Assembly: GCA_964447315.1 (NCBI GenBank)
Contig: CAYURQ010000001.1
Span: 27,351-91,350 of the forward strand
DNA: 64,000 nt
Direction: 5' to 3'
From: Candidatus Woesearchaeota archaeon
GTDB lineage: Archaea; Nanobdellota; Nanobdellia; Pacearchaeales; GW2011-AR1
The notes under the pieces were generated by a model. The model saw only the letters and a program-made list of their open reading frames with translations, did not search any database and had not been told where the DNA came from. Made by a program: the position numbers and the translations under genes. Shown one piece after another: positions 26,597-47,783 of this stretch (positions are counted from its first letter, which is position 1; each line of letters starts with the position of its first letter).

Positions 26597-27004
26597 TTAT
26601 TTCTTTTTATTTTTTCTTTTCTTTAAAATTAGTAATAAAATACAAATAACTATTATTCCTAATATTGTTAAAAAACTATTCATTAAGTTTATTGCCAAAC
26701 CAATTAAATTCAAGTAAAATACAACTAATGGAACAATTGCAATACTTAGTCCAAAGCTTAAAGCAATTCTTTCAAGCCAGTTTATAGTTCCTTTTTTATT
26801 GTCTTCATTTTTGGTTGTTTCAAGGAAAAAAACATAACTTAGTATAAATCCTGGAAGGAATAAAACATAAACACTTCCAAATACAATTCTGAAACTTGTT
26901 GATAATTCAATCATGCTGAACATTGCAATAGCTAAACTAATAAAAGCAAGAATAAAAACAACTCCTCCTGCACTCCAGAACCATTTTTTAATATCTTTAT
27001 TCAT
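26597..27004 (-). CDS. small membrane protein (135 aa); ORF-track N-terminal extension rejected
   Basis: The 264-aa ORF-track ORF overlaps the convergent 27057..27740 ORF. Its internal Met (MNKDIKKWFW..., four predicted TM helices) gives a non-overlapping gene. Confidence 0.4.
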   Translation of the reverse strand: MNKDIKKWFWSAGGVVFILAFISLAIAMFSMIELSTSFRIVFGSVYVLFLPGFILSYVFFLETTKNEDNKKGTINWLERIALSFGLSIAIVPLVVFYLNLIGLAINLMNSFLTILGIIVICILLLILKKRKNKKK

Positions 27005-27056
27005 AAATATAAGTAGGTGAAAATATTTATAAACATTATGATATAATTTATTTGTT

Positions 27057-27740
27057 ATGGTTAAAAAGAGGAAGCACAAATATAAGAGGAAAGCTAAGAA
27101 AAATGGAAAACCCCGTATGAATTCTACAACTAAATGGTTGATTTTTGGAGTTATTATGGGATTATTTATTATTGCTGTATTAGGTGCTATATTTGTTTTA
27201 CAACCTGAGATATTAGATGAGATATCTGCAAAATTTTTTAATAATGCAGAAGTTAATTTAGGGGCAACTTCTAATGTAAAAGAAAATAGCTCTTTAAGTT
27301 TTTCTGGACAATCTGTTCCTAATCCAAGCAAAAGTAATTCAGGAGTAGGAGCTGTGGTTTCATTATCAGCTCCGAGTGTTGATAATTCCATTTATTATTC
27401 AGGTTTAGCAAGCATGTTAAGTGAAACTCCAATGGTTCAGGATATTCCTAAAGGAGAAACAATTTTACTACGATTTTACAACTTTAATACTGGATACAGA
27501 GAGTTTGAAGAATCATTTATCTTAACAAAAGGAGCTGTAAAACCTGGGTATACAGAAGATGTTGAAATAACAATAGTAATGCATAGTAAATATCTTCCTG
27601 AATTAAGTAAGGATAATCTTTGCAGTACAATTACAAAGGCAAATGAGAATGGAGATGTTGGGATTTACACTGATTTGTCAACAACAAAAATAATTATGAA
27701 ATTTAATAGTATGATGGAGTATAAAGATTGTTTGATGTGA
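27057..27740 (+). CDS. membrane-anchored extracellular protein (227 aa)
   Basis: Basic N-terminus, one TM helix (WLIFGVIMGLFIIAVLGAIFVL), then a Ser/Asn-rich extracellular domain. Confidence 0.4.
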   Translation: MVKKRKHKYKRKAKKNGKPRMNSTTKWLIFGVIMGLFIIAVLGAIFVLQPEILDEISAKFFNNAEVNLGATSNVKENSSLSFSGQSVPNPSKSNSGVGAVVSLSAPSVDNSIYYSGLASMLSETPMVQDIPKGETILLRFYNFNTGYREFEESFILTKGAVKPGYTEDVEITIVMHSKYLPELSKDNLCSTITKANENGDVGIYTDLSTTKIIMKFNSMMEYKDCLM

Positions 27741-27910
27741 AAATAGCAAAGCGTATTTTTTTAAATTATATATTAGAATATTTCATATAAAACTAATGTT
27801 TTTTATTCTTCATAAGGGAGTGTTGGAATAAAGAAAAGTTTATATAATATTAGAACATTAAAATATAGAGGTGATGGAACCTCAAGATTCCCAATTCTTG
27901 AAAAAATACT

Positions 27911-29068
27911 ATGGCGCAAGTTAAAATGCAAGCACCATTATTAGAAAATATTTTAGATGTTTCTAACTCATTTTACTTAGATACTTTAGGATATAAACCT
28001 GAGAGAACTTCTTTGCAAGAACTTCCTAAAGAAAGTTGGAGTAATCTTGCTAATGAAAGAGGTCTAAACACAAATTCATCTGGAGTATATTTTCCAAGAA
28101 ACCAATTAGCAGTAATAAAACAAGAGAATCCCTTGAGTTTATTTCATGAGTATTTTGGACATGGATTATATTGCGAACAAAGCTTAGATGGAAGAAAATT
28201 AGTTGAATTAGAAAAAAAGCTTTTAGAAAAAGAAAAAAACAGATTTAATGGATATGAATTTACTTTAAAGGAATTGCAGGAGTTTAGGATAGAAAATCCT
28301 ACATTTCAAGAATTAAATAGATTTAAAGAAGAAAACTTAGGAAAATATGAATTATTTGCCTTATGGACAGAATATTTATTGTCAAAAGAGAATAATATGC
28401 TTGGAGATTTTGAAAGAAGATATGATAATTTTTCAAGGAAAGATAAAGAAGTTATTGATTCTACAATAAACTTTTCAGAAAGTTATGGTAATTTAGCTGC
28501 TTTTTATGCTCAAGGAATGAGCAAAATAATGACCAAAGATAGAGTGACAAAATTAATCAAAGATATTTATAAAAAAGATTTAGATAAGATAAAATTTGCA
28601 TTAGTTTATGGTTCTAAAAAACCTTTTAGTGATATTGATGTATTTATGGTTGGCAAGGGAGCTCCTATTGAATCTCATACAGATTGGTTAGATGCAAAAT
28701 ACAAGAATACTGTAGAATTTCAAAATGGATTAAGAAATTTTGATGTAAGAATAAGTGTTCCTTTAATGAATGGGGAATTTTTATTTGGAGATGAAGAATA
28801 TTTCGAAAAATCAAAACAAAAAATACTCTCTCAACCTATTACTGAAAAATCGATAAAATACAATCTGAGATGGTCTTCTAGAATGCAAAGATTGAAAGAA
28901 GAAAATCAAGAAAATGAATTTTTAAGAAAAAAATTTAAAGGATACAGTCTTACTTATATTAATAATGCATTGGCTTTAAGAAAAGGAAAAAGAATCTTTA
29001 CTAAAGAAGGTTTGCTTTCATATTCGCCTAGCGAAAGTAACACAGAATTAAAAGGAGGAAAAGCATAA
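27911..29068 (+). CDS. nucleotidyltransferase-domain protein (385 aa)
   Basis: Central YGSKKPFSDIDVFMVG matches the polymerase-beta-like nucleotidyltransferase GS...DxD motif. Rest unknown. First gene of a tightly coupled three-gene operon. Confidence 0.4.
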   Translation: MAQVKMQAPLLENILDVSNSFYLDTLGYKPERTSLQELPKESWSNLANERGLNTNSSGVYFPRNQLAVIKQENPLSLFHEYFGHGLYCEQSLDGRKLVELEKKLLEKEKNRFNGYEFTLKELQEFRIENPTFQELNRFKEENLGKYELFALWTEYLLSKENNMLGDFERRYDNFSRKDKEVIDSTINFSESYGNLAAFYAQGMSKIMTKDRVTKLIKDIYKKDLDKIKFALVYGSKKPFSDIDVFMVGKGAPIESHTDWLDAKYKNTVEFQNGLRNFDVRISVPLMNGEFLFGDEEYFEKSKQKILSQPITEKSIKYNLRWSSRMQRLKEENQENEFLRKKFKGYSLTYINNALALRKGKRIFTKEGLLSYSPSESNTELKGGKA

Positions 29069-29368: not shown

Positions 29369-29369
29369 A

Positions 29370-30147: not shown

Positions 30148-30158
30148 ATATTTTTCAA

Positions 30159-30467: not shown

Positions 30468-30474
30468 TTTTAAA

Positions 30475-30783: not shown

Positions 30784-30939
30784 TAAAAAATAATGCTCTT
30801 AATATTTAAATAAATTATTGTACTGAAAAATACTCTTCCTCTAAAACAGTAAACTAAGTAAAACAGATAATACTTCTGTAAAAGACGAAAGATTTAAATA
30901 GTAATATCAATTGATATTATCATAAAAATAGGAGTTAAA

Positions 30940-31218: not shown

Positions 31219-31535
31219 AATCAAAGGTTGTTTTTGTTGATAATAGCCTAGAAAAAGCGTTTAATTCTCTTGATGAATCAGACCCTATTAAAAAAGCATT
31301 AATTAGGGCAATAAAAAATATTCAACAAGATCCAAAAGCTGGAAGGAGTGTTATAAAAAGAATGATTCCAGAGAGACTAATTAAGAAATATGGGATAAAT
31401 AACTTGATGATTTACAATTTGCCAAATGCATGGAGAATGTTATATTCAGTAACTACTTCTGGAGATATAGAATTGGTGGCTGTAATACTTGATTGGATGA
31501 ATCACAAGGACTATGAGAGATTATTCAAGTTTTAA
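31215..31535 (+). CDS. RelE/ParE (or YoeB)-like toxin candidate (106 aa)
   Basis: C-terminal WRMLYSVTTSGDIELVAVILDWMNHKDYERLF follows the RelE/YoeB pattern ([WY]R..Y.V....V.V..I..H..Y). Translationally coupled to the upstream small gene. Confidence 0.4.
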   Translation: MKSKVVFVDNSLEKAFNSLDESDPIKKALIRAIKNIQQDPKAGRSVIKRMIPERLIKKYGINNLMIYNLPNAWRMLYSVTTSGDIELVAVILDWMNHKDYERLFKF

Positions 31536-31832
31536 TTATTCTTCATCTTCCTCAAGAACTAGTAAACTAAGTAAAACAATTAATACTCCTGCTATTATAG
31601 AAATTACCCAGCTTAGCCAACCTAACTCTAGAGTCTTAAACTTAATTATTAAAAAACCTGCAATACCAAGCAATCCTATGAATATATAATCTTTTCGTAT
31701 TTTTTCTTTGATAATTGGGGCGTGTTCTGAAAATACATCAAGAATTCCAGTAACAATTACAACAACCAATAATATATTTAAGTTAAGATAAGTGCTAACA
31801 AGTCCTGCCCATATTTGTTCAATCAATAACAA
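31536..31832 (-). CDS. small 3-TM membrane protein, family A (98 aa)
   Basis: Three hydrophobic helices and an acidic C-terminus (LEEDEE). About 90% identical to 33542..33844 and to its copies in repeat 2. The last ~9 codons lie outside the repeat. Confidence 0.5.
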   Translation of the reverse strand: MLLIEQIWAGLVSTYLNLNILLVVVIVTGILDVFSEHAPIIKEKIRKDYIFIGLLGIAGFLIIKFKTLELGWLSWVISIIAGVLIVLLSLLVLEEDEE

Positions 31833-31937
31833 TATTAGATAAGTTACTAAGACTGTTTGAAAGATGTGATTTACTAGGGATGCGTTGTGTCTGTGGAAAA
31901 GGGAAAAGTTTATAGAATTTTAAATTATTATTAAAAC

Positions 31938-32324
31938 ATGGAAGAAAGAGATGTAATAATTAAGATTTATGATAAAAAAGAAGAAATTAATAAAATAATT
32001 AAAGAATTAAAAAAATATTCATTTGAAGATTACATTAAAACTGGCCATTATGAAATTTCTTTATTAACTAAAGGAACAGATGAAGATAAATTGAGAGAGA
32101 TTTATCCTAAATTTGATATTATAGAATTAATAGCATTGAGGAGGCATAAAAATGGTTATGAGAATTATGATGTTTATTATGAACTTGAAAAAGGAAATTA
32201 TGCTTTGTTTGCCATAAATCTAGAAGGTAAAAAACCTAAAATAGATAATGCATTTATAGCTAATAGAATATTCAAAAATTTCTTAAAATCTATGGTAAAA
32301 AGATATGGTAATAAAATGGTTTAA
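31938..32324 (+). CDS. hypothetical protein B (128 aa)
   Basis: Divergent from family-A gene, with a TATA-like TTTATAG about 30 nt upstream. No motif. Its stop overlaps the convergent DUF2283-like gene by 4 nt. Confidence 0.4.
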   Translation: MEERDVIIKIYDKKEEINKIIKELKKYSFEDYIKTGHYEISLLTKGTDEDKLREIYPKFDIIELIALRRHKNGYENYDVYYELEKGNYALFAINLEGKKPKIDNAFIANRIFKNFLKSMVKRYGNKMV

Positions 32325-32656
32325 TTAGTCATGCATTGCATAGGTATATTTGCTATAGGAATTTGTTTTATTCCTGCTTTTTCATCTTCTAATCCCACCC
32401 CAATAAATAATTGATCTCTGCTTGGTTTTACAATAAGATTTAATTTTTCAAAGTCTTTTATTTGTTGTATATTAAACCCTATTGCCTCAAGAAAATTAGA
32501 AAACTCTCTTACTTCTAAACTAACTACTTTTCCGTTTCCAGTAGTGCTAATAATAAAATCTCCAAAGCTAAAATTCTTCTTAACTTTCTCATTATCTTGA
32601 ATAGAAGCCACAATTAAGCTGTCTGTATTCTCATCATATTTAGAGACTTTTATCAT
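32321..32656 (-). CDS. DUF2283-like small protein (111 aa)
   Basis: N-terminal MIKVSKYDENTDSLIV...GKVVSLEV matches the DUF2283 pattern (M.i.YD.e.D.lyi...G.ivGiEi). Confidence 0.4.
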   Translation of the reverse strand: MIKVSKYDENTDSLIVASIQDNEKVKKNFSFGDFIISTTGNGKVVSLEVREFSNFLEAIGFNIQQIKDFEKLNLIVKPSRDQLFIGVGLEDEKAGIKQIPIANIPMQCMTN

Positions 32657-32756
32657 ATTTTATAATAATATTTTGTTTATTTATACCTTTCTATTCATCT
32701 TCTAGAGGCAAGTAAAACATATAAATCTTAATAAATAATTAAAACTCCTTTTCTTA

Positions 32757-33545
32757 ATGGGAATTGATTCATCTGAAGCAAATCAAATAATAAACGCTAT
32801 TGATTTTGTAAATCATCATTATGGAGGTTCTGCAAAAGTTACTGGAGAATTCTTTTGTAAAGACTGTAATGAGAAATTTCCTTCTGGAGAATTTCGTTAT
32901 GATAAAGGAGGGTATATTCCAGGGCCAGGTTTAATTAATTTGTCTTCTGAAAGGGCTGCATTTCCCCTTCATGAGTTTCATACTGTTCTTGCTTTAAAAG
33001 ATTCTGATGAGATCTATGAAAAAAGAGTGATTTTAGACTTATTTAATAAATCAAGAAACTGGAATTTTTATGATGTTCCAGAAAGATGCTTTGAGGATTA
33101 TATGAAAATAATGAAAACAAGCTCACTAATTTCTATTGCTAGTCTAGAAGCTAATCATTGGTGTTATTCACTTCATTCAACACCAGATTTTACAGAAGAA
33201 GAAATGCTGGAGGATCCTATTAAAAGGGATATTCTAGAAATGGATAGGAAGATTAATCTTAGGCCAAATAAATTAGAAAATGAGGTTAAACCAGAAATAA
33301 ATCGGGTTTTCAAAGACATAATTGGTAATAGAGAAATTCCAATAATTTATATTATTCCAGAAGAATTTAGAGGAGATTTTGGAGAGGAATATTATAAAAG
33401 GGATTTTATTGAAGCAACATACAATACTTTTAAAGCAAAGAACATACTTTTTCCAGATGAAAAAAGAAATTCTGTTATTAAAATAATTGATTCTTACTTT
33501 AAAGAAGCAGAATTAAAGCATGAAAGACACCCTTCTCCTTTTTAG
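32757..33545 (+). CDS. hypothetical protein D (262 aa)
   Basis: ORF. N-terminal CKDCNEKF and later Cys/His residues. No recognised domain. Confidence 0.4.
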   Translation: MGIDSSEANQIINAIDFVNHHYGGSAKVTGEFFCKDCNEKFPSGEFRYDKGGYIPGPGLINLSSERAAFPLHEFHTVLALKDSDEIYEKRVILDLFNKSRNWNFYDVPERCFEDYMKIMKTSSLISIASLEANHWCYSLHSTPDFTEEEMLEDPIKRDILEMDRKINLRPNKLENEVKPEINRVFKDIIGNREIPIIYIIPEEFRGDFGEEYYKRDFIEATYNTFKAKNILFPDEKRNSVIKIIDSYFKEAELKHERHPSPF

Positions 33546-33844
33546 GATTCTTCATCCTCTTCTAAAACAAGTAAACTAAGTAAAACAATTAATACTCCTG
33601 CAACAAGAGATATTACCCATGACAACCATCCTAATTCTAGTGTTTTAAACTTGATTATCAGGAAACCTGCAATACCAAGCAATCCTATAAATATGTAATC
33701 TTTAGGTTTTATTTTTTCTTTAATAATTGGAGCGTGTTCTGAAAATACATCAAGAATTCCAGTAACAATTACAACAACTAATAAGATATTTAAGTTAAGA
33801 TAAGTGCTAACAAGTCCTGCCCATATTTGCTCAATTAATAACAA
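33542..33844 (-). CDS. small 3-TM membrane protein, family A' (100 aa)
   Basis: Paralog of 31536..31832 within the same repeat copy. Upstream region also similar. Confidence 0.5.
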   Translation of the reverse strand: MLLIEQIWAGLVSTYLNLNILLVVVIVTGILDVFSEHAPIIKEKIKPKDYIFIGLLGIAGFLIIKFKTLELGWLSWVISLVAGVLIVLLSLLVLEEDEES

Positions 33845-33960
33845 TATTAGATAAGTTACTAAGACTGTTTGAAAGGTGTGATTTACTAGGGATGTGTTGT
33901 GTCCACGGAATAGGAGGTGTTGGAGTGAGGGTTTGGGAATGTTGATAGGATTATTTTAAT

Positions 33961-34602
33961 TTATATAGAAGAATTAATATCTCCATGCACTACTAATGAT
34001 TGATAATTTTCAAATAAGAAAGGGGCATAAAATTGGGCTTCTGGAAAATCTTTAGTTGTACTTAGATACCAAATATTCTCTTCCATTTTATCTTTAGCTC
34101 TTTCAACTGACTTTTCTATAGTAGAACCTTCTATTAATGCTTTAACAAGGATATTTGAGGGTTCTAAAAATAATTTTGCTATTTTATCTCTTCTTGGAGA
34201 TGCCTCCTGATTAGGATCTTTCCCAAGATTAAAATCTCTCTCATATCCAATAAAACAAATGGCTCCTTTAGTAACTATTATCTTCCCTAGTTTTTGTCCT
34301 GATGAACAAGTTAGGGAATAAACAACCATGCCTGAAAGAACTTTTGCATTTTCTTTAGAGATTATTATCTCATTTTTATGCCCAGCAATCAAATCAGGAT
34401 TACCATGCCCATTAAACATAATAAAATCTGGTTTTTGCTTTTTTATAATTTTTAAGATTTCTTTTTTATTTGCTTTTTCTCTTTCCCTATTTATTGTTTT
34501 GTTTCCTCTTTCTTTCGAATATTTAACTAATTCTTTACTATAATAATATAAATAAGAGAGGGTCCCATCATGCTCGGGTCTGGAAAAAATAATATTACTC
34601 AT
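33961..34602 (-). CDS. putative minimal caspase/hemoglobinase-fold protease-like protein (His/Cys dyad)
   Basis: 213 aa. FIMFNGHGNPDLIAGH (His followed by Gly, like the caspase SHG motif), then about 33 residues later YSLTCSSGQ (Cys followed by small residues, like QACRG / DACHSG). An N-terminal beta-strand IIFSRPEHDG. Last gene of the operon G-F-E. Confidence 0.3.
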   Translation of the reverse strand: MSNIIFSRPEHDGTLSYLYYYSKELVKYSKERGNKTINREREKANKKEILKIIKKQKPDFIMFNGHGNPDLIAGHKNEIIISKENAKVLSGMVVYSLTCSSGQKLGKIIVTKGAICFIGYERDFNLGKDPNQEASPRRDKIAKLFLEPSNILVKALIEGSTIEKSVERAKDKMEENIWYLSTTKDFPEAQFYAPFLFENYQSLVVHGDINSSI

Positions 34603-34604
34603 AA

Positions 34605-34841
34605 TTATTGTTTTACTAAAAAACCTCTTTTGAAAGCTTTAAGATAGTTTAATTGGATTTCAACTATTCTATTTCCAATATCTGTATTATCTTCTATGTT
34701 TTTTATCAACTCATCTCTTTTCATAAATTTTCCATCAGACATTCCAAATGAAACACTTACATTTGGGGAAGCCTGCCTAATTCTTTCTATGACTATTTCT
34801 TTCTTTAACTGATCTATATTCTCTTGTTTATTTTCTTTCAT
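34605..34841 (-). CDS. hypothetical protein F (78 aa)
   Basis: Middle gene of the operon. Overlaps the upstream gene by 4 nt (ATGA). Confidence 0.35.
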   Translation of the reverse strand: MKENKQENIDQLKKEIVIERIRQASPNVSVSFGMSDGKFMKRDELIKNIEDNTDIGNRIVEIQLNYLKAFKRGFLVKQ

Positions 34842-35020
34842 ATTATTTCTAACTCTTTTAGTATTTTTAATATTTTCTCTCCATTTTCTGTCTTATTCTT
34901 TATTTCTTGGTAAGCAAGATTCCAACTTATTGGATTTTTATCTATAATTACTATTGTATTGTTTCTTTCTTTTATAGGCACTCCAGAATAAACTTTAAAG
35001 AAATCTTCTTCATTTACCAT
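34838..35020 (-). CDS. hypothetical protein G (60 aa)
   Basis: First gene of the G-F-E operon. Confidence 0.3.
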   Translation of the reverse strand: MVNEEDFFKVYSGVPIKERNNTIVIIDKNPISWNLAYQEIKNKTENGEKILKILKELEII

Positions 35021-35203
35021 TATTAAATTAGTAAATTAATCTTTTTAATTTTTGTCATTTCTTTTTCCTCGGCTTATTCCAATAAGGACTTTGGGGTTTC
35101 ATGAAACACTGAAGAGAAAAGGATATTTAAATGCTGTTTTTTGGAGTGTGGGTAAAACAATTCATCTTAATCTATATATTTTTTAATTAATGATTCTATA
35201 ATT

Positions 35204-35464
35204 TTAATTATACACTTTATCTCTTTTATCAATTTTTACTATCAAAATTATTTTCTGAGCTTCTTTAATTTTATATAATGCTCTAAAGTACCCAATTCTA
35301 TACCTAAAAACCATCTCATTATTATCTCTCCCAATAAACTTTGAATCACTTGGTACAGGAGTATTTTCAAGGTTTTTTAATCTCTTTTCAATCCTTTCTC
35401 TTTCTTTGGTATCTAATTTGTTTAAAAAATCCTGGGCTTTAACAGACAGCTCTACAGAATACAT
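35204..35464 (-). CDS. RelE/ParE-family toxin (86 aa)
   Basis: MVFRYRIGYFRALYKI...IILIVKIDKRDKVY is the classic RelE/ParE C-terminal signature. Confidence 0.6.
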   Translation of the reverse strand: MYSVELSVKAQDFLNKLDTKERERIEKRLKNLENTPVPSDSKFIGRDNNEMVFRYRIGYFRALYKIKEAQKIILIVKIDKRDKVYN

Positions 35465-35465
35465 T

Positions 35466-35627
35466 TTACAGTCTCTTTGTTCTGCCTTCTTTTAAATCTT
35501 CTTCAGCTTGATTTAAAGAGTTTATGTCGTCTTGGGTTAGAGTTACATCTATTATGTGCTCCTTTAAAGAATCCATATCTTTTTTTAAATTGTCTAGTTT
35601 ACTTATGATTAATTCTTCGTTTTCCAT
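35466..35627 (-). CDS. putative antitoxin (53 aa), not in ORF track
   Basis: My reverse-complement translation gives MENEELIISKLDNLKKDMDSLKEHIIDVTLTQDDINSLNQAEEDLKEGRTKRL. Its stop lies 2 nt before the RelE ATG, the typical antitoxin-toxin arrangement. Confidence 0.45.
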   Translation of the reverse strand: MENEELIISKLDNLKKDMDSLKEHIIDVTLTQDDINSLNQAEEDLKEGRTKRL

Positions 35628-35781
35628 ATCTTCCAATATAAAAATAACTATATAATCTTTTCGTATTTTTTATTTTTCATAAGGGGTGTTGGTTGGAGCA
35701 TTTTAGGGAGTATTGTAAATTAAAAAAAAAGAAATAATTAGCAGAACAATCAAAAAAAATTAGAAAAGATATGGAAAGAAT

Positions 35782-36189
35782 CTACAAAATTTCTTTTAAA
35801 TAATTAGATAAATTTAAATCCCTAATTTCTTGTTTTCTTAACCATTTATAATCTTCATGTTCTTTACTTAACTTAACATTCTCTGGTTTTTCATGAGTTT
35901 TTAATATATATATTATTCTTAAAAGATGAACTTTTTTCCCTTGTTTCTCATATTCTTTACTTAATATTCTATAGATTGAAACTATTTCTGTATCGAGACT
36001 TGTTTCTTCCTTAACTTCTCTAAGTACAGCTTCAGAAGGATCTTCTCCAAATTCAACTCTTCCTCCAGGAATTTCCCATTCTCGAGAACCATCTACTTCT
36101 TTTGAATTTCTTTTAAGAAAAAGAAACTTATCTTGTATCTGAATCAATCCATTTGCTAAAATATTTGTTTTTTTCTTAATTTCTGACAT
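35782..36189 (-). CDS. NUDIX hydrolase
   Basis: 135 aa. Nudix box GGRVEFGEDPSEAVLREVKEETSL (Gx5Ex7REVxEExG). Sits in the unique 544-bp spacer between the two repeat copies. Confidence 0.8.
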   Translation of the reverse strand: MSEIKKKTNILANGLIQIQDKFLFLKRNSKEVDGSREWEIPGGRVEFGEDPSEAVLREVKEETSLDTEIVSIYRILSKEYEKQGKKVHLLRIIYILKTHEKPENVKLSKEHEDYKWLRKQEIRDLNLSNYLKEIL

Positions 36190-36224
36190 GTTTTAATAAA
36201 AGAATACATTTTATTTAAGGTTTT

Positions 36225-36527
36225 CTAATCTTGTTGTTCACCTTCTTCTAAAACAAGCAAACTAAGTAAAACAATTAATACTCCTGCTATTATAGAAATT
36301 ACCCAGCTTAGCCAACCTAACTCTAGAGTCTTAAACTTAATTATTAAAAAACCTGCAATACCAAGCAATCCTATGAATATATAATCTTTTCGTATTTTTT
36401 CTTTGATAATTGGGGCGTGTTCTGAAAATACATCAAGAATTCCAGTAACAATTACAACAACCAATAATATATTTAAGTTAAGATAAGTGCTAACAAGTCC
36501 TGCCCATATTTGTTCAATCAATAACAA
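36225..36527 (-). CDS. small 3-TM membrane protein, family A (copy 2; C-terminus differs outside the repeat)
   Basis: Identical to 31536..31832 except for the last residues (EEGEQQD). Confidence 0.5.
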   Translation of the reverse strand: MLLIEQIWAGLVSTYLNLNILLVVVIVTGILDVFSEHAPIIKEKIRKDYIFIGLLGIAGFLIIKFKTLELGWLSWVISIIAGVLIVLLSLLVLEEGEQQD

Positions 36528-36632
36528 TATTAGATAAGTTACTAAGACTGTTTGAAAGATGTGATTTACTAGGGATGCGTTGTGTCTGTGGAAAAGGGAA
36601 AAGTTTATAGAATTTTAAATTATTATTAAAAC

Positions 36633-37019
36633 ATGGAAGAAAGAGATGTAATAATTAAGATTTATGATAAAAAAGAAGAAATTAATAAAATAATTAAAGA
36701 ATTAAAAAAATATTCATTTGAAGATTACATTAAAACTGGCCATTATGAAATTTCTTTATTAACTAAAGGAACAGATGAAGATAAATTGAGAGAGATTTAT
36801 CCTAAATTTGATATTATAGAATTAATAGCATTGAGGAGGCATAAAAATGGTTATGAGAATTATGATGTTTATTATGAACTTGAAAAAGGAAATTATGCTT
36901 TGTTTGCCATAAATCTAGAAGGTAAAAAACCTAAAATAGATAATGCATTTATAGCTAATAGAATATTCAAAAATTTCTTAAAATCTATGGTAAAAAGATA
37001 TGGTAATAAAATGGTTTAA
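36633..37019 (+). CDS. hypothetical protein B (copy 2)
   Basis: Identical to 31938..32324. Confidence 0.4.
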   Translation: MEERDVIIKIYDKKEEINKIIKELKKYSFEDYIKTGHYEISLLTKGTDEDKLREIYPKFDIIELIALRRHKNGYENYDVYYELEKGNYALFAINLEGKKPKIDNAFIANRIFKNFLKSMVKRYGNKMV

Positions 37020-37351
37020 TTAGTCATGCATTGCATAGGTATATTTGCTATAGGAATTTGTTTTATTCCTGCTTTTTCATCTTCTAATCCCACCCCAATA
37101 AATAATTGATCTCTGCTTGGTTTTACAATAAGATTTAATTTTTCAAAGTCTTTTATTTGTTGTATATTAAACCCTATTGCCTCAAGAAAATTAGAAAACT
37201 CTCTTACTTCTAAACTAACTACTTTTCCGTTTCCAGTAGTGCTAATAATAAAATCTCCAAAGCTAAAATTCTTCTTAACTTTCTCATTATCTTGAATAGA
37301 AGCCACAATTAAGCTGTCTGTATTCTCATCATATTTAGAGACTTTTATCAT
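37016..37351 (-). CDS. DUF2283-like protein (copy 2)
   Basis: Identical to 32321..32656. Confidence 0.4.
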   Translation of the reverse strand: MIKVSKYDENTDSLIVASIQDNEKVKKNFSFGDFIISTTGNGKVVSLEVREFSNFLEAIGFNIQQIKDFEKLNLIVKPSRDQLFIGVGLEDEKAGIKQIPIANIPMQCMTN

Positions 37352-37451
37352 ATTTTATAATAATATTTTGTTTATTTATACCTTTCTATTCATCTTCTAG
37401 AGGCAAGTAAAACATATAAATCTTAATAAATAATTAAAACTCCTTTTCTTA

Positions 37452-38240
37452 ATGGGAATTGATTCATCTGAAGCAAATCAAATAATAAACGCTATTGATT
37501 TTGTAAATCATCATTATGGAGGTTCTGCAAAAGTTACTGGAGAATTCTTTTGTAAAGACTGTAATGAGAAATTTCCTTCTGGAGAATTTCGTTATGATAA
37601 AGGAGGGTATATTCCAGGGCCAGGTTTAATTAATTTGTCTTCTGAAAGGGCTGCATTTCCCCTTCATGAGTTTCATACTGTTCTTGCTTTAAAAGATTCT
37701 GATGAGATCTATGAAAAAAGAGTGATTTTAGACTTATTTAATAAATCAAGAAACTGGAATTTTTATGATGTTCCAGAAAGATGCTTTGAGGATTATATGA
37801 AAATAATGAAAACAAGCTCACTAATTTCTATTGCTAGTCTAGAAGCTAATCATTGGTGTTATTCACTTCATTCAACACCAGATTTTACAGAAGAAGAAAT
37901 GCTGGAGGATCCTATTAAAAGGGATATTCTAGAAATGGATAGGAAGATTAATCTTAGGCCAAATAAATTAGAAAATGAGGTTAAACCAGAAATAAATCGG
38001 GTTTTCAAAGACATAATTGGTAATAGAGAAATTCCAATAATTTATATTATTCCAGAAGAATTTAGAGGAGATTTTGGAGAGGAATATTATAAAAGGGATT
38101 TTATTGAAGCAACATACAATACTTTTAAAGCAAAGAACATACTTTTTCCAGATGAAAAAAGAAATTCTGTTATTAAAATAATTGATTCTTACTTTAAAGA
38201 AGCAGAATTAAAGCATGAAAGACACCCTTCTCCTTTTTAG
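37452..38240 (+). CDS. hypothetical protein D (copy 2)
   Basis: Identical to 32757..33545. Confidence 0.4.
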   Translation: MGIDSSEANQIINAIDFVNHHYGGSAKVTGEFFCKDCNEKFPSGEFRYDKGGYIPGPGLINLSSERAAFPLHEFHTVLALKDSDEIYEKRVILDLFNKSRNWNFYDVPERCFEDYMKIMKTSSLISIASLEANHWCYSLHSTPDFTEEEMLEDPIKRDILEMDRKINLRPNKLENEVKPEINRVFKDIIGNREIPIIYIIPEEFRGDFGEEYYKRDFIEATYNTFKAKNILFPDEKRNSVIKIIDSYFKEAELKHERHPSPF

Positions 38241-38539
38241 GATTCTTCATCCTCTTCTAAAACAAGTAAACTAAGTAAAACAATTAATACTCCTGCAACA
38301 AGAGATATTACCCATGACAACCATCCTAATTCTAGTGTTTTAAACTTGATTATCAGGAAACCTGCAATACCAAGCAATCCTATAAATATGTAATCTTTAG
38401 GTTTTATTTTTTCTTTAATAATTGGAGCGTGTTCTGAAAATACATCAAGAATTCCAGTAACAATTACAACAACTAATAAGATATTTAAGTTAAGATAAGT
38501 GCTAACAAGTCCTGCCCATATTTGCTCAATTAATAACAA
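38237..38539 (-). CDS. small 3-TM membrane protein A' (copy 2)
   Basis: Identical to 33542..33844. Confidence 0.5.
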   Translation of the reverse strand: MLLIEQIWAGLVSTYLNLNILLVVVIVTGILDVFSEHAPIIKEKIKPKDYIFIGLLGIAGFLIIKFKTLELGWLSWVISLVAGVLIVLLSLLVLEEDEES

Positions 38540-38655
38540 TATTAGATAAGTTACTAAGACTGTTTGAAAGGTGTGATTTACTAGGGATGTGTTGTGTCCA
38601 CGGAATAGGAGGTGTTGGAGTGAGGGTTTGGGAATGTTGATAGGATTATTTTAAT

Positions 38656-39297
38656 TTATATAGAAGAATTAATATCTCCATGCACTACTAATGATTGATA
38701 ATTTTCAAATAAGAAAGGGGCATAAAATTGGGCTTCTGGAAAATCTTTAGTTGTACTTAGATACCAAATATTCTCTTCCATTTTATCTTTAGCTCTTTCA
38801 ACTGACTTTTCTATAGTAGAACCTTCTATTAATGCTTTAACAAGGATATTTGAGGGTTCTAAAAATAATTTTGCTATTTTATCTCTTCTTGGAGATGCCT
38901 CCTGATTAGGATCTTTCCCAAGATTAAAATCTCTCTCATATCCAATAAAACAAATGGCTCCTTTAGTAACTATTATCTTCCCTAGTTTTTGTCCTGATGA
39001 ACAAGTTAGGGAATAAACAACCATGCCTGAAAGAACTTTTGCATTTTCTTTAGAGATTATTATCTCATTTTTATGCCCAGCAATCAAATCAGGATTACCA
39101 TGCCCATTAAACATAATAAAATCTGGTTTTTGCTTTTTTATAATTTTTAAGATTTCTTTTTTATTTGCTTTTTCTCTTTCCCTATTTATTGTTTTGTTTC
39201 CTCTTTCTTTCGAATATTTAACTAATTCTTTACTATAATAATATAAATAAGAGAGGGTCCCATCATGCTCGGGTCTGGAAAAAATAATATTACTCAT
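38656..39297 (-). CDS. putative caspase-fold His/Cys protein (copy 2)
   Basis: Identical to 33961..34602. Confidence 0.3.
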   Translation of the reverse strand: MSNIIFSRPEHDGTLSYLYYYSKELVKYSKERGNKTINREREKANKKEILKIIKKQKPDFIMFNGHGNPDLIAGHKNEIIISKENAKVLSGMVVYSLTCSSGQKLGKIIVTKGAICFIGYERDFNLGKDPNQEASPRRDKIAKLFLEPSNILVKALIEGSTIEKSVERAKDKMEENIWYLSTTKDFPEAQFYAPFLFENYQSLVVHGDINSSI

Positions 39298-39299
39298 AA

Positions 39300-39536
39300 T
39301 TATTGTTTTACTAAAAAACCTCTTTTGAAAGCTTTAAGATAGTTTAATTGGATTTCAACTATTCTATTTCCAATATCTGTATTATCTTCTATGTTTTTTA
39401 TCAACTCATCTCTTTTCATAAATTTTCCATCAGACATTCCAAATGAAACACTTACATTTGGGGAAGCCTGCCTAATTCTTTCTATGACTATTTCTTTCTT
39501 TAACTGATCTATATTCTCTTGTTTATTTTCTTTCAT
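39300..39536 (-). CDS. hypothetical protein F (copy 2)
   Basis: Identical to 34605..34841. Confidence 0.35.
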   Translation of the reverse strand: MKENKQENIDQLKKEIVIERIRQASPNVSVSFGMSDGKFMKRDELIKNIEDNTDIGNRIVEIQLNYLKAFKRGFLVKQ

Positions 39537-39715
39537 ATTATTTCTAACTCTTTTAGTATTTTTAATATTTTCTCTCCATTTTCTGTCTTATTCTTTATTT
39601 CTTGGTAAGCAAGATTCCAACTTATTGGATTTTTATCTATAATTACTATTGTATTGTTTCTTTCTTTTATAGGCACTCCAGAATAAACTTTAAAGAAATC
39701 TTCTTCATTTACCAT
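39533..39715 (-). CDS. hypothetical protein G (copy 2)
   Basis: Identical to 34838..35020. Confidence 0.3.
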   Translation of the reverse strand: MVNEEDFFKVYSGVPIKERNNTIVIIDKNPISWNLAYQEIKNKTENGEKILKILKELEII

Positions 39716-39898
39716 TATTAAATTAGTAAATTAATCTTTTTAATTTTTGTCATTTCTTTTTCCTCGGCTTATTCCAATAAGGACTTTGGGGTTTCATGAA
39801 ACACTGAAGAGAAAAGGATATTTAAATGCTGTTTTTTGGAGTGTGGGTAAAACAATTCATCTTAATCTATATATTTTTTAATTAATGATTCTATAATT

Positions 39899-40159
39899 TT
39901 AATTATACACTTTATCTCTTTTATCAATTTTTACTATCAAAATTATTTTCTGAGCTTCTTTAATTTTATATAATGCTCTAAAGTACCCAATTCTATACCT
40001 AAAAACCATCTCATTATTATCTCTCCCAATAAACTTTGAATCACTTGGTACAGGAGTATTTTCAAGGTTTTTTAATCTCTTTTCAATCCTTTCTCTTTCT
40101 TTGGTATCTAATTTGTTTAAAAAATCCTGGGCTTTAACAGACAGCTCTACAGAATACAT
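39899..40159 (-). CDS. RelE/ParE-family toxin (copy 2)
   Basis: Identical to 35204..35464. Confidence 0.6.
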   Translation of the reverse strand: MYSVELSVKAQDFLNKLDTKERERIEKRLKNLENTPVPSDSKFIGRDNNEMVFRYRIGYFRALYKIKEAQKIILIVKIDKRDKVYN

Positions 40160-40160
40160 T

Positions 40161-40322
40161 TTACAGTCTCTTTGTTCTGCCTTCTTTTAAATCTTCTTCA
40201 GCTTGATTTAAAGAGTTTATGTCGTCTTGGGTTAGAGTTACATCTATTATGTGCTCCTTTAAAGAATCCATATCTTTTTTTAAATTGTCTAGTTTACTTA
40301 TGATTAATTCTTCGTTTTCCAT
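40161..40322 (-). CDS. putative antitoxin (copy 2)
   Basis: Identical to 35466..35627. Confidence 0.45.
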   Translation of the reverse strand: MENEELIISKLDNLKKDMDSLKEHIIDVTLTQDDINSLNQAEEDLKEGRTKRL

Positions 40323-40591
40323 ATCTTCCAATATAAAAATAACTATATAATCTTTTCGTATTTTTTATTTTTCATAAGGGGTGTTGGTTGGAGCATTTTA
40401 GGGAGTATTGGGGGAGGAAGGGAAAAGTAGATAAATATTCATTAAACAATAATATCACAATGAGAAAAAGTTTATATATCCCGCATTGTTTGATAAATTA
40501 TGAGAGTAAAATGGGGGGTGAATGTATTTTCTGAAAGATAGTTTTATAAATATAATTAAATCTCTCTTTTATAAAGATTTTAAGTAAAAAA

Positions 40592-40846
40592 ATGGAACAG
40601 CAATTTATGACAAATAATTCAGATAATTTGCAAGAACTCTTTGATTCTAAAAAAAATGAAGTTGTTTCTCTTTGTAAGGAAGTTGCTGAAAATGAATTTG
40701 ACTTATTTGAATTTAATCTTTTCTTAGCTTCTATGGGGAAGAAAAAATTAGATGAATCTACTAAGAAAGTAAGAGAACTTAGAAAGAAAGTAGATAAAGG
40801 AAAGATTGATTTAACAAAAGACGAAGATATGTTGGATGATTATTAA
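40592..40846 (+). CDS. hypothetical acidic protein (84 aa)
   Basis: ORF. Convergent 4-nt overlap with the next gene. Confidence 0.3.
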   Translation: MEQQFMTNNSDNLQELFDSKKNEVVSLCKEVAENEFDLFEFNLFLASMGKKKLDESTKKVRELRKKVDKGKIDLTKDEDMLDDY

Positions 40847-41429
40847 TGCCTTTTCTTTTTATTAGAATGTTTATTTTTTGAAAAATTTCTTAACATCTTA
40901 TTTACCTCTTGTTCTGATCCAGGTTCTATAATTGTTGGTACATCCAAATCAATATTTAAATAATTACAAGGATCTTGAAAATCTCTTCTATTATTTGTTG
41001 AGATGCAATTTATTCCAGCAATACAATATACAGATATTATTCTTAAATCATTATCCCCTGCCTTCCAATTATTGTCTTTTCTTTCTGTTTTTAGTTTGTC
41101 AAAAAGTGCATTTACCTTGGCTTGATTTACATCTTTCTTTTTTATGGGTTTTATCCTATTTCTTCTTAAAAAATTAAAGATTTCTCTTTTATTTAATTCT
41201 TTATCTGGATTCTTTTTAGATAACAGATTTAATAATTCACTAAAAACAATATAATTTGTATGAAGAAAATTGCCTCTTTTTGCAATTCTAGGCCTATATC
41301 CCCAAGTTCCTTTTTCATTTTCCATCCAAGAAAAAGAGTTATCTGTATCTAAACCAATTTTTCTTAAAATTTTATTTCTTGCTACAACTCTTTCCATATG
41401 AATAACCTTCTTTTTCTTATTATCCATTA
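40843..41429 (-). CDS. hypothetical protein (195 aa from internal Met MDNKKKK)
   Basis: The ORF-track N-terminal extension would translate through the G-rich intergenic element. The trimmed start has TATA-like CTATATATTTTTAAA about 25 nt upstream. Confidence 0.35.
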
Positions 41430-41575
41430 TTTGTTTAATCAAACTAAATTTAAAAATATATAGCAAGATTAAAGAATTTTTTATTTTCCATAGGGGGTGT
41501 TGGTTGGAGCATTTGGGGGAGTGTTTGGAGGGAGAGAGGGAAAAGTAGATAAATGTTAAAACAATCTCTTTTTTT

Positions 41576-42445
41576 ATGGAGATTGCATCAGTTATAGAAA
41601 TAGGAAGCAAGTTTTTATCCTATGTTCTTGGGTTTTCAAGCATAGAATCAAATGAGATGGTGTTATACAGAATTCTTGCAGTATTTATTCTTGGTTGGTT
41701 GTGCTTATTTGGTTTTTTAATCATAAGAAAATCAAAATCCTTAAAACATTGGAGAATTCCCCATTTAGTTAGTATTAGTGCCATAATCTTAGTAAGTTCA
41801 GTTGGATTTTTTATTAGTTATATTCTCATATTAAATTTTAATATGTTAATTATTATAACAGAAAATATAAATGAACCAATAAACTTTCTAACAGTACTCT
41901 TTTTTATGATTTTTTACATTTCATTTGGTCTTGATTCAATAAATAAAAAATTAGGGAATGGGGAAAACTCTGAAGAATTAATTCCAAAAGAGGTGGGAAT
42001 CTTTGTCTGGAGATCAATTATGCTTGGATTTGGATTGCTAGTTGTTGTATTGTCCCAATTATTTCTATTAAAATATCTAGGGAGACTTCCTTTTGACTTA
42101 AATGTTTCTCCATCTCCTCCTTGGTTTTATTTAGCTGCGTTTCTTTTCTTTTTTTTAGCTGGAATTCTCCTTTGTTATTTTTCACTTGCAAGAAAAAAAT
42201 CTACTGAATTTTTTAATAAAATGGACAAATTTATGGAAAATAATCTTAGAGTGCCATTCATTTTTATGTTTGTTATTTTCATAATAATATTAATAGATAA
42301 AATAATAAGAAAAGATTCTGATAATTTAATACGTTCAGCTTTTATAAGCGCAGTTTTCTTAGTTATTTCTATTTTTATTAAAAAAATAAATAAGTGGGTA
42401 GTAGATTTTTTGAAAAATCTGGGTACTTTGGAAAAGAAAAAGTAA
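41576..42445 (+). CDS. polytopic membrane protein (289 aa)
   Basis: Six or more hydrophobic helices. Divergent from the previous gene, across the G-rich element. Confidence 0.4.
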   Translation: MEIASVIEIGSKFLSYVLGFSSIESNEMVLYRILAVFILGWLCLFGFLIIRKSKSLKHWRIPHLVSISAIILVSSVGFFISYILILNFNMLIIITENINEPINFLTVLFFMIFYISFGLDSINKKLGNGENSEELIPKEVGIFVWRSIMLGFGLLVVVLSQLFLLKYLGRLPFDLNVSPSPPWFYLAAFLFFFLAGILLCYFSLARKKSTEFFNKMDKFMENNLRVPFIFMFVIFIIILIDKIIRKDSDNLIRSAFISAVFLVISIFIKKINKWVVDFLKNLGTLEKKK

Positions 42446-44149: not shown

Positions 44150-44632
44150 CTAAGAATAATGAGATATCCTATTTCTATCTTCTATTGAATAATCCCTTTC
44201 TTCTTGAGGTGGTTCATAGTGAGATTCATTTTTATTTTCAGGCTCGTCTTTTTCAGTAAGAACCATCCAGCTTAATAAAATAATAATTAATCCTCCTAGT
44301 ATTGCAATTGCATAACCAATCCAACCTAAATCTTTTAACTTAAGATAAATAATTCCTGCTCCTAATATTCCTAAAATAATTATGAAAACTTTGTCTTTCC
44401 ATGTTATTGGCTTTTCTTTTTGTTTCTTTATTTTTGGAGGAAAAATAATGCTTATTGCTCCAACAATGATTACTGCAAACATGAACCAATTAATATTAAT
44501 CAAGGAATCAATTGTTGTTTGATAAAATTCTCTTAATAACAAGGTAATTAAAAACAAGAACAACAATATTTGAAATGTTGTGTGAAATATGTGCTTCACA
44601 TGTTCTATTATTATTTTTTGTTTTCTGTTCAT
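44150..44632 (-). CDS. membrane protein related to the family-A small membrane proteins
   Basis: 160 aa. The C-terminal half (LGILGAGIIYLKLKDLGWIGYAIAILGGLIIILLSWMVLTEKDE) parallels family A (LLGIAGFLIIKFKTLELGWLSWVISIIAGVLIVLLSLLVLEEDEE). Confidence 0.4.
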   Translation of the reverse strand: MNRKQKIIIEHVKHIFHTTFQILLFLFLITLLLREFYQTTIDSLININWFMFAVIIVGAISIIFPPKIKKQKEKPITWKDKVFIIILGILGAGIIYLKLKDLGWIGYAIAILGGLIIILLSWMVLTEKDEPENKNESHYEPPQEERDYSIEDRNRISHYS

Positions 44633-46413: not shown

Positions 46414-46718
46414 AATTATCAAAACCATTCCAAGTTTAAATGTATTACTATGATAATATACTCACATAAATTTATAAACTATATATATCTATAATATATT
46501 ACTATGAGTAACTACAAACCCAAAACAAGATATTGTTCTAAGTGCCTTCAGAGTATAGATGAAACCAAAGATGATTATGTTATGTTAATTAGTAAAACAG
46601 GGCAAAAAATTAAAGAATTTTTTATTTTCCATAGGGGGTGTTGGTTGGAGCATTTTAGGGAGTATTATCAATTAAACAAAAAGAAATAATTTAAATAGAA
46701 TATTTAGTATCTCTTATT

Positions 46719-47783
46719 ATGGCTAGCATGATTAAAAATAGTACAATTGTTGTTGCTGGAATAATAATCAGTAATTTATTGGCTTATGTATTTCACATTT
46801 ATGTTGGTAGGAGTTTAGGTCCTGCTGAATATGGGGTTTTTGGTGTATTAATGGCATTGCTTACAATAATCTCCTTGCCTGCAGGAGCAATAAGCAGTTC
46901 TTCTACAAAATATATTGCTAAATATAATGTTCAAAAAAAACAAGGGCAAATTGGATTATTAAGAAGAAATTTAAGTATAAAGATAATAACTTATTCCCTA
47001 ATAGTTTTTCTATTAATAATCCTATTAAGTAAACCAATTGCTAATTATCTTAATATAGAATCACAGATTTCAGTTGTTATTGTTGGATTAGCTTCTATTT
47101 TTGCATTAATGCTTCCTATTAATAGAGGAGTTTTACAAGGAATGAAGAAGTTTAAAGCTTATAGCATGAATACAATATTAGAATCAACAATAAGATTAGT
47201 TTTAGTGGTGTTATTTATTTACGCTGGATTAAAATCAGAAGGAGCAATATTAGCTTATGGATTAGCATACTTTTTTGCATTCTTGCTAATCTTTCCATTA
47301 ACAAAAGAAGTAAATTCTCATGACAAAAATGAAAAACTTATTTCTCCTAATTTCTTGAAATTTGCAATCTTGGTTTTAATAGTGAATTTAATAATACAAG
47401 GAATAATTAATATCCCCACAATATTTATTAAACATTATTTAACAGCAGAGTTTACAGGATTATGGACAGCAGCATTAACTTTAGCTAGAATTAGCTTATT
47501 TGTGGTTGGAGGAATAATTTTAGTTATGTTTCCAGAAGTAGCTGAAAAATCAAACCATAAAGATAAAAGAGCTGTGTTAAAGAAGGCATTCATATTAACA
47601 CTTATCTGCTCATTTGGCATTGCATTAATTTTCTGGATAATTCCTGAACCATTTATTAATATTTTATATGGCTCAGAATTCCTTGGAGCAGTTCCAATAT
47701 TAAAATGGATGAGTATTGCAATGATTGGAATAGCCTCACTTCAGCTTAGTTTGAATTATTGGTTGGCGGGGAAGAAAGAATAA
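46719..47783 (+). CDS. polysaccharide/oligosaccharide flippase-like membrane protein (Wzx/MATE-like)
   Basis: 354 aa, about 10 TM helices. Sits in the glycosylation cluster. Confidence 0.5.
   Translation: MASMIKNSTIVVAGIIISNLLAYVFHIYVGRSLGPAEYGVFGVLMALLTIISLPAGAISSSSTKYIAKYNVQKKQGQIGLLRRNLSIKIITYSLIVFLLIILLSKPIANYLNIESQISVVIVGLASIFALMLPINRGVLQGMKKFKAYSMNTILESTIRLVLVVLFIYAGLKSEGAILAYGLAYFFAFLLIFPLTKEVNSHDKNEKLISPNFLKFAILVLIVNLIIQGIINIPTIFIKHYLTAEFTGLWTAALTLARISLFVVGGIILVMFPEVAEKSNHKDKRAVLKKAFILTLICSFGIALIFWIIPEPFINILYGSEFLGAVPILKWMSIAMIGIASLQLSLNYWLAGKKE

Follow-up and report, generated by a model that had tools for sequence, protein, structure and literature searches.

What is a conspicuous G-rich sequence, present in several closely similar copies, doing between the genes of an AT-rich archaeal genome? 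The sequence lies in a 64-kb stretch of DNA, all of which was analysed and which is referred to below as the window; the window has a GC content of ~27%, and its archaeal nature is indicated by genes for Rpb2- and Rpb1-type RNA polymerase subunits, S12, S7, EF-2 and EF-1alpha. As the window is archaeal, a sigma-70 promoter and terminator scan of it was uninformative; no tRNA genes were found in it. A first reading, made from the letters alone, had described the repeat as an intergenic element, and had offered for it a transcription-factor site or upstream activating sequence (UAS) defining a regulon, a recombination or att-like site, and part of a small RNA. We conclude that the element is an ordinary gene relic of a known kind, and no new regulatory or mobile element: the apparent intergenic repeat consists of coding sequence and the relics of that coding sequence, and a short open reading frame that had been dismissed as an artefact is the actual gene.

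Copies and extents of the G-rich repeat

Exact matches to GGTGTTGGWTGGAG are present in the 64-kb window at 35685, 40380, 41496 and 46637, all on the plus strand, and allowing up to two mismatches gives nine matches compared with 0.22 expected. The repeat is thus real, with at least four copies. The ~50-nt core (35665-35714, 40360-40409, 41476-41525 and 46617-46666) has a chance expectation of none, and a search with 20 nt taken from its left half recovered all five sites in the window, again with none expected. The additional site is a degenerate copy (copy 0; the copies are numbered from left to right in Table 1), in which 27799-27826 reads TTTTTTATTCTTCATAAGGGAGTGTTGG and for which the local-alignment score was unmatched by any shuffle. 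This copy had been placed at 27811..27850; it is real, with its start at 27799.

Repeat finding and self-BLAST were used to compare the copies with one another. Copies 1 and 4 (35665-35739 vs 46617-46691) are 93% identical over 75 nt, and for copies 2 and 3 (40360-40439 vs 41476-41557) the identity is 87% over 82 nt. Copies 3 and 4 (41465-41525 vs 46606-46666) match at 93% over 61 nt, including an extra 11-nt prefix, ATTAAAGAATT, in agreement with the longer shared prefix that had been noticed for the copies at 41468 and 46609; the first 49 nt of copy 3 are identical to copy 4. Identity among the cores in the window is 94-100%, compared with only ~75% in the tails that follow them, and the flanks are unrelated. 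The proposal that all copies lie 50-130 nt upstream of gene starts does not hold, as the distances from core to ATG are not uniform: 38 nt (antitoxin ATG 35627), 35-46 nt (ATG 41430 of the PIN-like gene), 51 nt (ATG 41576) and 183 nt (ATG 40592).

Table 1. Positions in the window of the repeat copies, the gene that they match and the features of the surrounding island
Feature	Position	Strand	Description	Relation or evidence
Copy 0	27799..27850	+	putative degenerate relic; left edge of the island	local alignment
Repeat block A	31536..35715		4180 bp; right end inside copy 1	99.8% to 36231-40410
R1b	33539..33914	-	one of four ~376-bp R1 repeats	self-BLAST
Relic of the 402-aa gene	35062..35092 (also 39757-39787)		putative relic, 31 nt, of the 5' region	94% to 46280-46310
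RelE/ParE toxin with upstream antitoxin	35204..35627	-	toxin at 35204..35464	duplicate at 39899-40322
Copy 1	35665..35739	+	putative 5'-truncated relic; core and tail A, ending in FFIFHKGCWLEHFREYCKLKKKK and a stop codon	93% to copy 4
Unique spacer between A and A'	35716..36230	-	515 bp; NUDIX gene 35782..36189	self-BLAST
Repeat block A'	36231..40410		4180 bp; right end inside copy 2	
Copy 2	40360..40439	+	core identical to copy 1, decayed tail B beginning EYWGRKGKVDKY	self-BLAST
PIN-like gene	40843..41430	-	195 aa	PIN-like domain fits the 195-aa form
Copy 3	41465..41557	+	putative 5'-truncated relic; decayed tail B', ending in HLGECLEGEREK and a stop codon	self-BLAST
Intact zinc-finger gene	46504..46689	+	61-aa predicted zinc-finger protein, MSNYKPKTRYCSKCLQSIDETKDDYVMLISKTGQKIKEFFIFHRGCWLEHFREYYQLNKKK, then a stop codon	source of the repeated element
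Copy 4	46606..46691	+	multi-copy part of the zinc-finger gene	repeat finding, self-BLAST
Oligosaccharide flippase gene	46719..47783	+	directly 3' of the zinc-finger gene	Pfam-type scan

The intact gene and its protein family

Copy 4 lies inside ORF 46504..46689 (ATG at 46504, TAA at 46687, 61 codons), a conserved gene, and the description of the element as intergenic therefore fails. The core of this copy, 46617-46666, is FFIFHRGCWLEHFREY, and its tail (tail A, 46667-46691) consists of the codons for YQLNKKK, the stop codon and 2 nt. Read in the frame of the ORF, the element TTTTCCATAGGGGGTGTTGGTTGGAGCATTTTAGGGAGTAT encodes F-H-R-G-C-W-L-E-H-F-R-E-Y, and its G-richness is explained by the codons AGG GGG TGT TGG TTG GAG CAT TTT AGG GAG, which specify R-G-C-W-L-E-H-F-R-E. 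The multi-copy segment thus corresponds to the 3' coding third of the gene, from about codon 36 through the stop codon, and it encodes two of the four predicted zinc ligands (H43 and C46) and the near-invariant W47. The sequence-only reading had taken two ORFs for artefactual translations of the element: the N-terminus of ORF 40843..41610 is indeed spurious (the 195-aa form starts at 41430), but ORF 46504..46689 is a real gene.

Relatives of this gene are present on six metagenome contigs and on a contig of a Candidatus Diapherotrites MAG (L003). They include the Logan contigs L001 and L002 with P0001, a 71-aa protein 68% identical to the 61-aa product, the JGI metagenome contigs L004-L006, and the loci L007 and L008, both with intact zinc-finger genes; the only named relatives carry Candidatus Diapherotrites or Candidatus Pacearchaeota labels (both DPANN archaea). 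Nucleotide alignment of the gene between genomes reveals changes of the synonymous type (TGT/TGC, TCT/TCC, CAA/CAG and GAA/GAG), and the differences at codon positions 1/2/3 in a 44-codon ungapped block number 5/5/15, 7/5/18 and 9/8/20, with a range of 12-20 at the third position compared with 5-9 at positions 1 and 2. The dN/dS ratio against the relatives is 0.09-0.16. These substitution patterns indicate purifying selection and, together with the relatives and with the protein family and predicted fold described next, they establish that ORF 46504..46689 is a real gene that has been conserved.

A HMMER profile search of 1.8 billion representatives returned 17 clusters of ~45-90-aa proteins at E ≤ 1e-3. 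Across an 18-sequence alignment, six residues are invariant (C11, C14, I18, K31, H43 and C46) and four almost invariant (M27, I29, F39 and W47), giving a family pattern of an invariant C-x2-C...H-x2-C(W) in proteins of ~60 aa. The AlphaFold2 model of the 61-aa protein (pLDDT 88.3) contains a CxxC zinc knuckle, a beta-hairpin at residues 25-43 and a helix at residues 44-59 that starts at the HxxC motif, and the product is accordingly described here as a predicted zinc-finger protein with predicted metal ligands. It has neither a signal peptide nor a membrane segment. No sequence match to it was found among the Pfam and NCBIfam models or the PDB chains, and a Foldseek comparison with solved structures gave nothing significant, the best match being to the zinc finger of PARP-1 (E=0.39). 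A by-product of the analysis of the repeat is thus a micro-protein family without annotation, made up of small CxxC...HxxCW predicted zinc-finger proteins of ~60 aa. The protein collection contains the adjacent flippase at 100% identity and lacks the exact 61-aa product, so that gene calling in the source record probably overlooked the zinc-finger gene. The genes of the family often have toxin-antitoxin or small DNA-binding genes as neighbours, or stand first in a glycan cluster; the contigs that carry them are of the DPANN archaeal type, two of them with DPANN source labels.

The literature found comprised only general DPANN reviews and papers on Haloferax micro-proteins. The C(P)XCG proteins of Haloferax volcanii are archaeal zinc-finger micro-proteins (PMC11241148, PMC10716476), defined by two C(P)XCG motifs in a protein of under 70 aa (PMC11241148). 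Like them, the 61-aa protein is shorter than 70 aa, is archaeal, has a single predicted zinc-binding domain and lacks an annotated function; unlike them, it carries the motifs CSKCL and HRGCW (C-S-K-C and H-x-x-C-W). It falls within the size range of the C(P)XCG class but, without the two C(P)XCG motifs, is not a member of that class.

Head-less copies and the accessory island

Copies 1-4 alike encode FFIFH[KR]GCWLEH in the frame of the gene. In copies 1-3, the frame is closed by in-frame stops a few codons upstream, and no ATG, GTG or TTG is available. For copy 1, the upstream stop is at 35645-35647 and the start codon is absent; the copy adjoins the BRE/TATA elements of the minus-strand antitoxin-RelE/ParE operon. 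Copy 2 reads ...FFIFHKGCWLEHFREYWGRKGKVDKY... in the gene frame and has lost its stop codon, and its core forms the end of repeat block A'. Copy 3, which in the gene frame ends in KIKEFFIFHRGCWLEHLGECLEGEREK and a stop codon, is flanked by the minus-strand PIN-like gene, which starts at 41430, and by a 289-aa membrane gene (start 41576); its tail carries GGGAAAAGTAGATAAAT, a BRE/TATA-like sequence ~30 nt before the ATG at 41576, which likewise precedes a methyltransferase gene in L008. In copy 0, the left half of the core is kept and carries an insertion of 1 nt; the 3' half has been lost or replaced, and the copy runs into a BRE/TATA-like sequence, AAAGAAAAGTTTATATAAT, upstream of the gene at 27911..29068. 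Copies 0-3 are thus in-frame fragments truncated at the 5' end, and can be read as promoterless pseudogene relics. The 5' 113 nt of the gene and the N-terminal peptide have no second occurrence anywhere in the window, and this lack of 5' remnants argues, within the window, against the simple insertion of cassettes into intact paralogues.

Two types of tail follow the cores. Tail A (copies 1 and 4) encodes Y/C-Q/K-L-N/K-KKK and a stop codon; in copies 2 and 3, tail B has decayed, through indels and loss of the stop codon, from the functional sequence EYWE[LM]EGK and stop that the intact L008 and L007 genes carry. The cores of copies 1-3 have hardly decayed, unlike these tails.

The island in which the relics lie contains a 4.18-kb duplication, blocks A and A', the identity of which stops at 35715/40410, exactly where tail A and tail B diverge. 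The element consequently does mark the right boundary of the duplicated cassette, as had been claimed from the letters; the repeat is not strictly tandem, because the 515-bp NUDIX segment separates the two blocks. The left ends of both blocks are at the edge of an R1 repeat. The four copies of R1 (R1b, together with 31530-31902, 36234-36597 and 38234-38609) are 88% identical, with a 3' remnant at 30834-30885, and R1 is paralogous to the C-terminal region of the 160-aa membrane gene at 44150..44632. Three relics in block A match the main locus around the intact gene in the same order and orientation: 33548-33901 in R1b corresponds to 44243-44602, 35062-35092 to 46280-46310, and copy 1 to 46617-46691. 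Together, they identify the right half of block A as a decayed, paralogous copy of the main locus. In this copy, the RelE/ParE-antitoxin pair takes up exactly the space expected for the beginning of the 402-aa gene, for the divergent promoters and for the 5' half of the zinc-finger gene. The junction beside copy 1 contains a 27-nt piece of R1 coding sequence, joined via ATTTTTT microhomology. The order of the relics points to segmental duplication followed by replacement and decay, and not to the spread of an autonomous element.

The island neighbours a surface-glycan gene cluster and holds, besides the duplicated RelE/ParE-antitoxin pair, the PIN-like gene, the NUDIX gene, a weak match to a nucleotidyltransferase and many ORFans. 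Matches of defence type were limited to ParE/RelE and the weak PIN; Fic, HEPN and AAA_14 matches lie elsewhere in the window. No recombinase or viral genes were found among the ~50 ORFs of the island and its flanks with Pfam, NCBIfam, PHROGs and PADLOC, and many of the island ORFs have no match at all in these four collections, so that a novel recombinase could be among them.

The locus was compared with one close relative (L008) and a few short contigs. L008 is syntenic with 42731-47778 of the window at 79-88% nucleotide identity, with a common order of a 447-aa membrane gene, a 160/152-aa gene, a 402/377-aa gene, the zinc-finger gene and the flippase gene. At the 3' end of this array, L008 has an intact zinc-finger gene with tail B, the methyltransferase gene, a 5'-truncated core with tail A (RIGVFFIFHKICWMEHFEEYYQLNKKK, then stop) and the flippase gene; in the corresponding part of the window, the flippase gene immediately follows the intact gene, which has tail A, and TATA-like TTTAAATA starts at the zinc-finger stop codon, ~25 nt ahead of the flippase ATG. 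In the more distant L011/L012 (flippase 63% identical), a DUF1616 gene is followed directly by a 450-aa gene, and a 348-aa gene directly by the flippase gene, with neither the island nor the zinc-finger gene present. This order implies that ~27.8-42.7 kb of the window (~15 kb) is accessory, as is the zinc-finger gene. Copy 0 is at the left edge of the island, and copy 3 is near its right edge.

Between genomes, the DNA of the motif is not retained: relatives have AAGAAGTGCTGGATGGAGC or AAAATATGCTGGATGGAAC in place of AGGGGGTGTTGGTTGGAGC in the window, and GGTGTTGGTTGGAG is replaced by GTGCTGGATGGAG or ATGCTGGATGGAA, the changes being synonymous and the encoded peptide conserved. The truncated fragment in L008 differs from copy 4 at 17/48 core positions, yet identity is complete over ~40 nt of the tail and promoter beside it. 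Variants of the core are specific to the genome, with TTGGAGCAT in all of the window copies and ATGGAACACTTTGA in both L008 copies. Genome-specific cores beside more diverged tails suggest concerted evolution, which would have occurred by gene conversion.

Origin of the repeated element

The explanation that we favour, with a probability of about 0.8, is that the element is the 3' end of the zinc-finger gene, accompanied by head-less relics that act as passive patches of homology in a variable island. The locus from the 160-aa membrane gene to the 402-aa gene, with the divergent zinc-finger gene and the gene downstream of it, would have been duplicated segmentally, and in the older copies the 5' half of the zinc-finger gene would then have been removed by toxin-antitoxin modules and deletions. 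The 3' end would be kept preferentially when the downstream genes are duplicated or moved, since the promoter of the next gene appears to begin at or inside the zinc-finger tail. Today, the relics would serve as short patches of high homology at which homologous recombination or gene conversion starts and ends; blocks A and A' may have resulted from a non-allelic homologous exchange, or from gene conversion, with its end points in two pre-existing patches. Passive homology of this kind would explain the right junction of the 4.18-kb repeat, the exchange of tails A and B and the near-identical cores. Neutral relics are expected to decay evenly, so that cores 94-100% identical require a recent origin or gene conversion, both of which are assumed here, or selection at the DNA level.

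Gene relics, in the sense of truncated pseudogene fragments, arise from segmental duplication and non-allelic homologous recombination, and are found in variable islands, for example around surface-polysaccharide loci. The copies described here resemble them in being in frame, 5'-truncated and promoterless, in the co-located relics of one locus that keep the same order, in rearrangement junctions that fall in conserved patches and in the absence of the island from a relative. They differ from the usual gene relics in the contrast between the cores and the decayed tails, and in the retention of only the 3' third of the gene. We know of no described example of gene relics of such kind in a DPANN archaeon. 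The region documents how duplicated copies of a single locus, as they decay, make up an accessory island in a reduced DPANN genome, the rearrangement junctions lying in short gene remnants that have stayed conserved.

The core could instead be att-like: a site-specific recombinase would use the 3' end of the zinc-finger gene to insert or exchange cassettes that bring a promoter with them, in an integron-like manner or by tandem integration, and the fragments would be duplicated att copies. In favour of this reading, the methyltransferase cassette in L008 is bracketed in direct orientation by the intact gene with tail B and the truncated core with tail A, and the window has the same gene with tail A and without the cassette. 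As at att sites of integrative elements that target the 3' ends of genes and bring a replacement 3' end, direct repeats of the 3' part flank the inserted DNA in L008, and the incoming copy there supplies a different functional tail. Also in its favour are the single orientation of all copies, the location of copies 0 and 3 close to the left and right edges of the island, the clustering of the fragments' 5' ends within ~14 nt and the frequent breaks of homologue contigs at the gene. However, no integrase was detected with the four collections in the island and its flanks, nor among the called genes of L008, and the L008 insert is a single gene of the housekeeping type, not a mobile element. The topology in the window is also wrong, because conserved backbone genes (447 aa to 402 aa) separate the intact gene from the fragments, which are all upstream of it. 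Moreover, the crossover point is not fixed: in register, the left ends at 41465 and 35665 are 11 nt apart, and at one junction there is the ATTTTTT microhomology with a piece of R1. Neither inverted repeats nor an attC-like structure is present in the core, and viral contigs gave no match to either the DNA pattern or the protein patterns. The suggestion of a recombination site is therefore retained only in so far as junctions do fall in the core, and an att-like site proper we regard as improbable. A shade less probable still is a broader version, in which the core would be a preferred recombination site of DPANN archaea where promoter-bearing cassettes (methyltransferase, membrane protein, toxin-antitoxin) are inserted, swapped and deleted, exchanging tails and leaving head-less copies behind, either integron-like with an unrecognised recombinase or driven by very short homology.

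The case for a shared transcription-factor site or UAS defining a regulon of accessory genes comes from the positions of copies 1-3 directly upstream of the BRE/TATA-like boxes of divergent genes, and from cores that are better conserved than their flanks within the genome. Such a regulon is quite unlikely, given that relatives conserve only the peptide and vary at synonymous sites, the outcome that the sequence-only reading had itself named as evidence against it, and that the L008 fragment combines a diverged core with an unchanged tail and promoter. Copy 4 forms part of a coding region, half of the motif is missing from copy 0, and the distance and orientation relative to the neighbouring genes are inconsistent, copy 1 having no gene downstream on its (plus) strand. 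Highly unlikely, in turn, is the use of the truncated copies as silent donor cassettes, as in pilS/pilE or vls, that alter the C-terminal tail of the expressed gene or the gene downstream. Promoterless, 5'-truncated, G-rich copies upstream of the expressed copy and in the same orientation, and two alternative tails, with tail B in the intact gene of L008 and tail A silent, are what such a system would have; but a small zinc finger with neither signal peptide nor membrane segment is no surface antigen, decay has affected the silent tails (frameshift, stop loss), only 6-9 residues differ, and recombination between direct repeats would delete the intervening DNA and not switch it reversibly. Almost no weight can be given to a small non-coding RNA, for which only the repetition and the conspicuous composition speak: no Rfam family reached the gathering threshold anywhere in the window, the fold energies of all four copies on both strands do not stand out from those of shuffles (z about -1.0 to +0.75), and the substitution pattern is that of a coding sequence.

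Against the explanation by passive homology patches, the 5' truncations of copies 1/2, of copy 3 and of the L008 fragment, three independent events, all lie within ~14 nt, a clustering with p about 0.03 under uniform breakpoints by a rough estimate, which hints at a preferred breakpoint. Finally, individual relics may have been co-opted, for example as upstream sequence of the adjacent toxin-antitoxin promoters.

The zinc-finger gene in a close relative and in sequence databases

In the syntenic close relative L008 (3764-4930), an intact zinc-finger gene with an alternative tail (EYWELEGK*) is followed by a methyltransferase gene, a second, head-less copy of the zinc-finger gene and the flippase gene, in that order. 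The tail of the head-less copy is of the type found in the window, and the ~40 nt comprising tail A (one of the two alternative 3' ends of the zinc-finger gene) and the flippase promoter are identical in L008 and the window, despite saturated synonymous sites in the neighbouring genes.

The 61-aa zinc-finger ORF (46504-46689) has no entry in a collection of 15 billion proteins, and no Pfam or NCBIfam model describes the family; the adjacent flippase from the same genome is present in that collection with a 100% match (NCBI, 104-kb contig). The zinc-finger gene was apparently overlooked when genes were called for the source record. The contigs that carry its homologues (L003, L006, L007, L009) are short and often end inside the gene or a few tens of nucleotides away; such breaks would fit with repeats or strain variation at the locus in the source communities.

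R1 repeats, the 31-nt patch and the PIN-like gene

The R1 repeats, at one edge of which the 4.18-kb repeat block has its left end, code for a membrane ORF of ~100 aa that is paralogous to the C-terminal portion of the 160-aa gene (44150..44632), itself a weak match to Polysacc_synt. Their right ends are G-rich and show a weak likeness to two parts of the zinc-finger gene: ATAGGAGGTGTTGGAGTGAGGGTTTGGG is similar to the core (the repeated part of its 3' coding third), with an equally good match in 1/500 shuffles, and AGGGAAAAGTTTATAGAAT to tail B, its other 3' end, with none as good in 500 shuffles. The G-rich ends may be relics of even greater age.

Repeated features in the window
Feature	Coordinates	Length and identity
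R1 repeats	31530-31902, 33539-33914, 36234-36597, 38234-38609	~376 bp, 88% identical
R1 3' remnant	30834-30885	
G-rich R1 right ends	33905-33945, 38600-38640; 31893-31920, 36588-36615	
31-nt patch	35062-35092, 39757-39787, 46280-46310	94% conserved, main vs relic locus
Dispersed repeat pair	56229-56508 vs 58025-58302	89% over 280 nt
Dispersed repeat pair	30905-31196 vs 59555-59844	67% over 297 nt

The 31-nt patch includes the inverted repeat CTTATT-CC-AATAAG and could be an operator. It sits between the 402-aa gene and the zinc-finger gene, in the former's 5' region.

The 255-aa ORF at 40843-41610 (minus strand) is over-extended. The PIN-like domain matches a 195-aa form whose ATG is at 41430, with a TATA-like box ~30 nt upstream of it. 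The longer ORF reads, in its first 60 codons, the opposite strand of copy 3, a head-less zinc-finger relic.

Accessory regions

The more distant relative L011 (1-2200) has its DUF1616 gene (26597..27391 in the window) right next to the 447-aa membrane gene (42731.. in the window) and lacks everything that separates them here, 27800-42700; this segment is therefore an accessory island of ~15 kb. It contains toxin-antitoxin genes and ORFans as well as a NUDIX gene, and no integrase could be detected in it. The further dispersed repeats listed above connect it with another accessory region, located at 56-63 kb, which carries AAA_14/DUF4143, two Fic/DOC genes and one HEPN gene.
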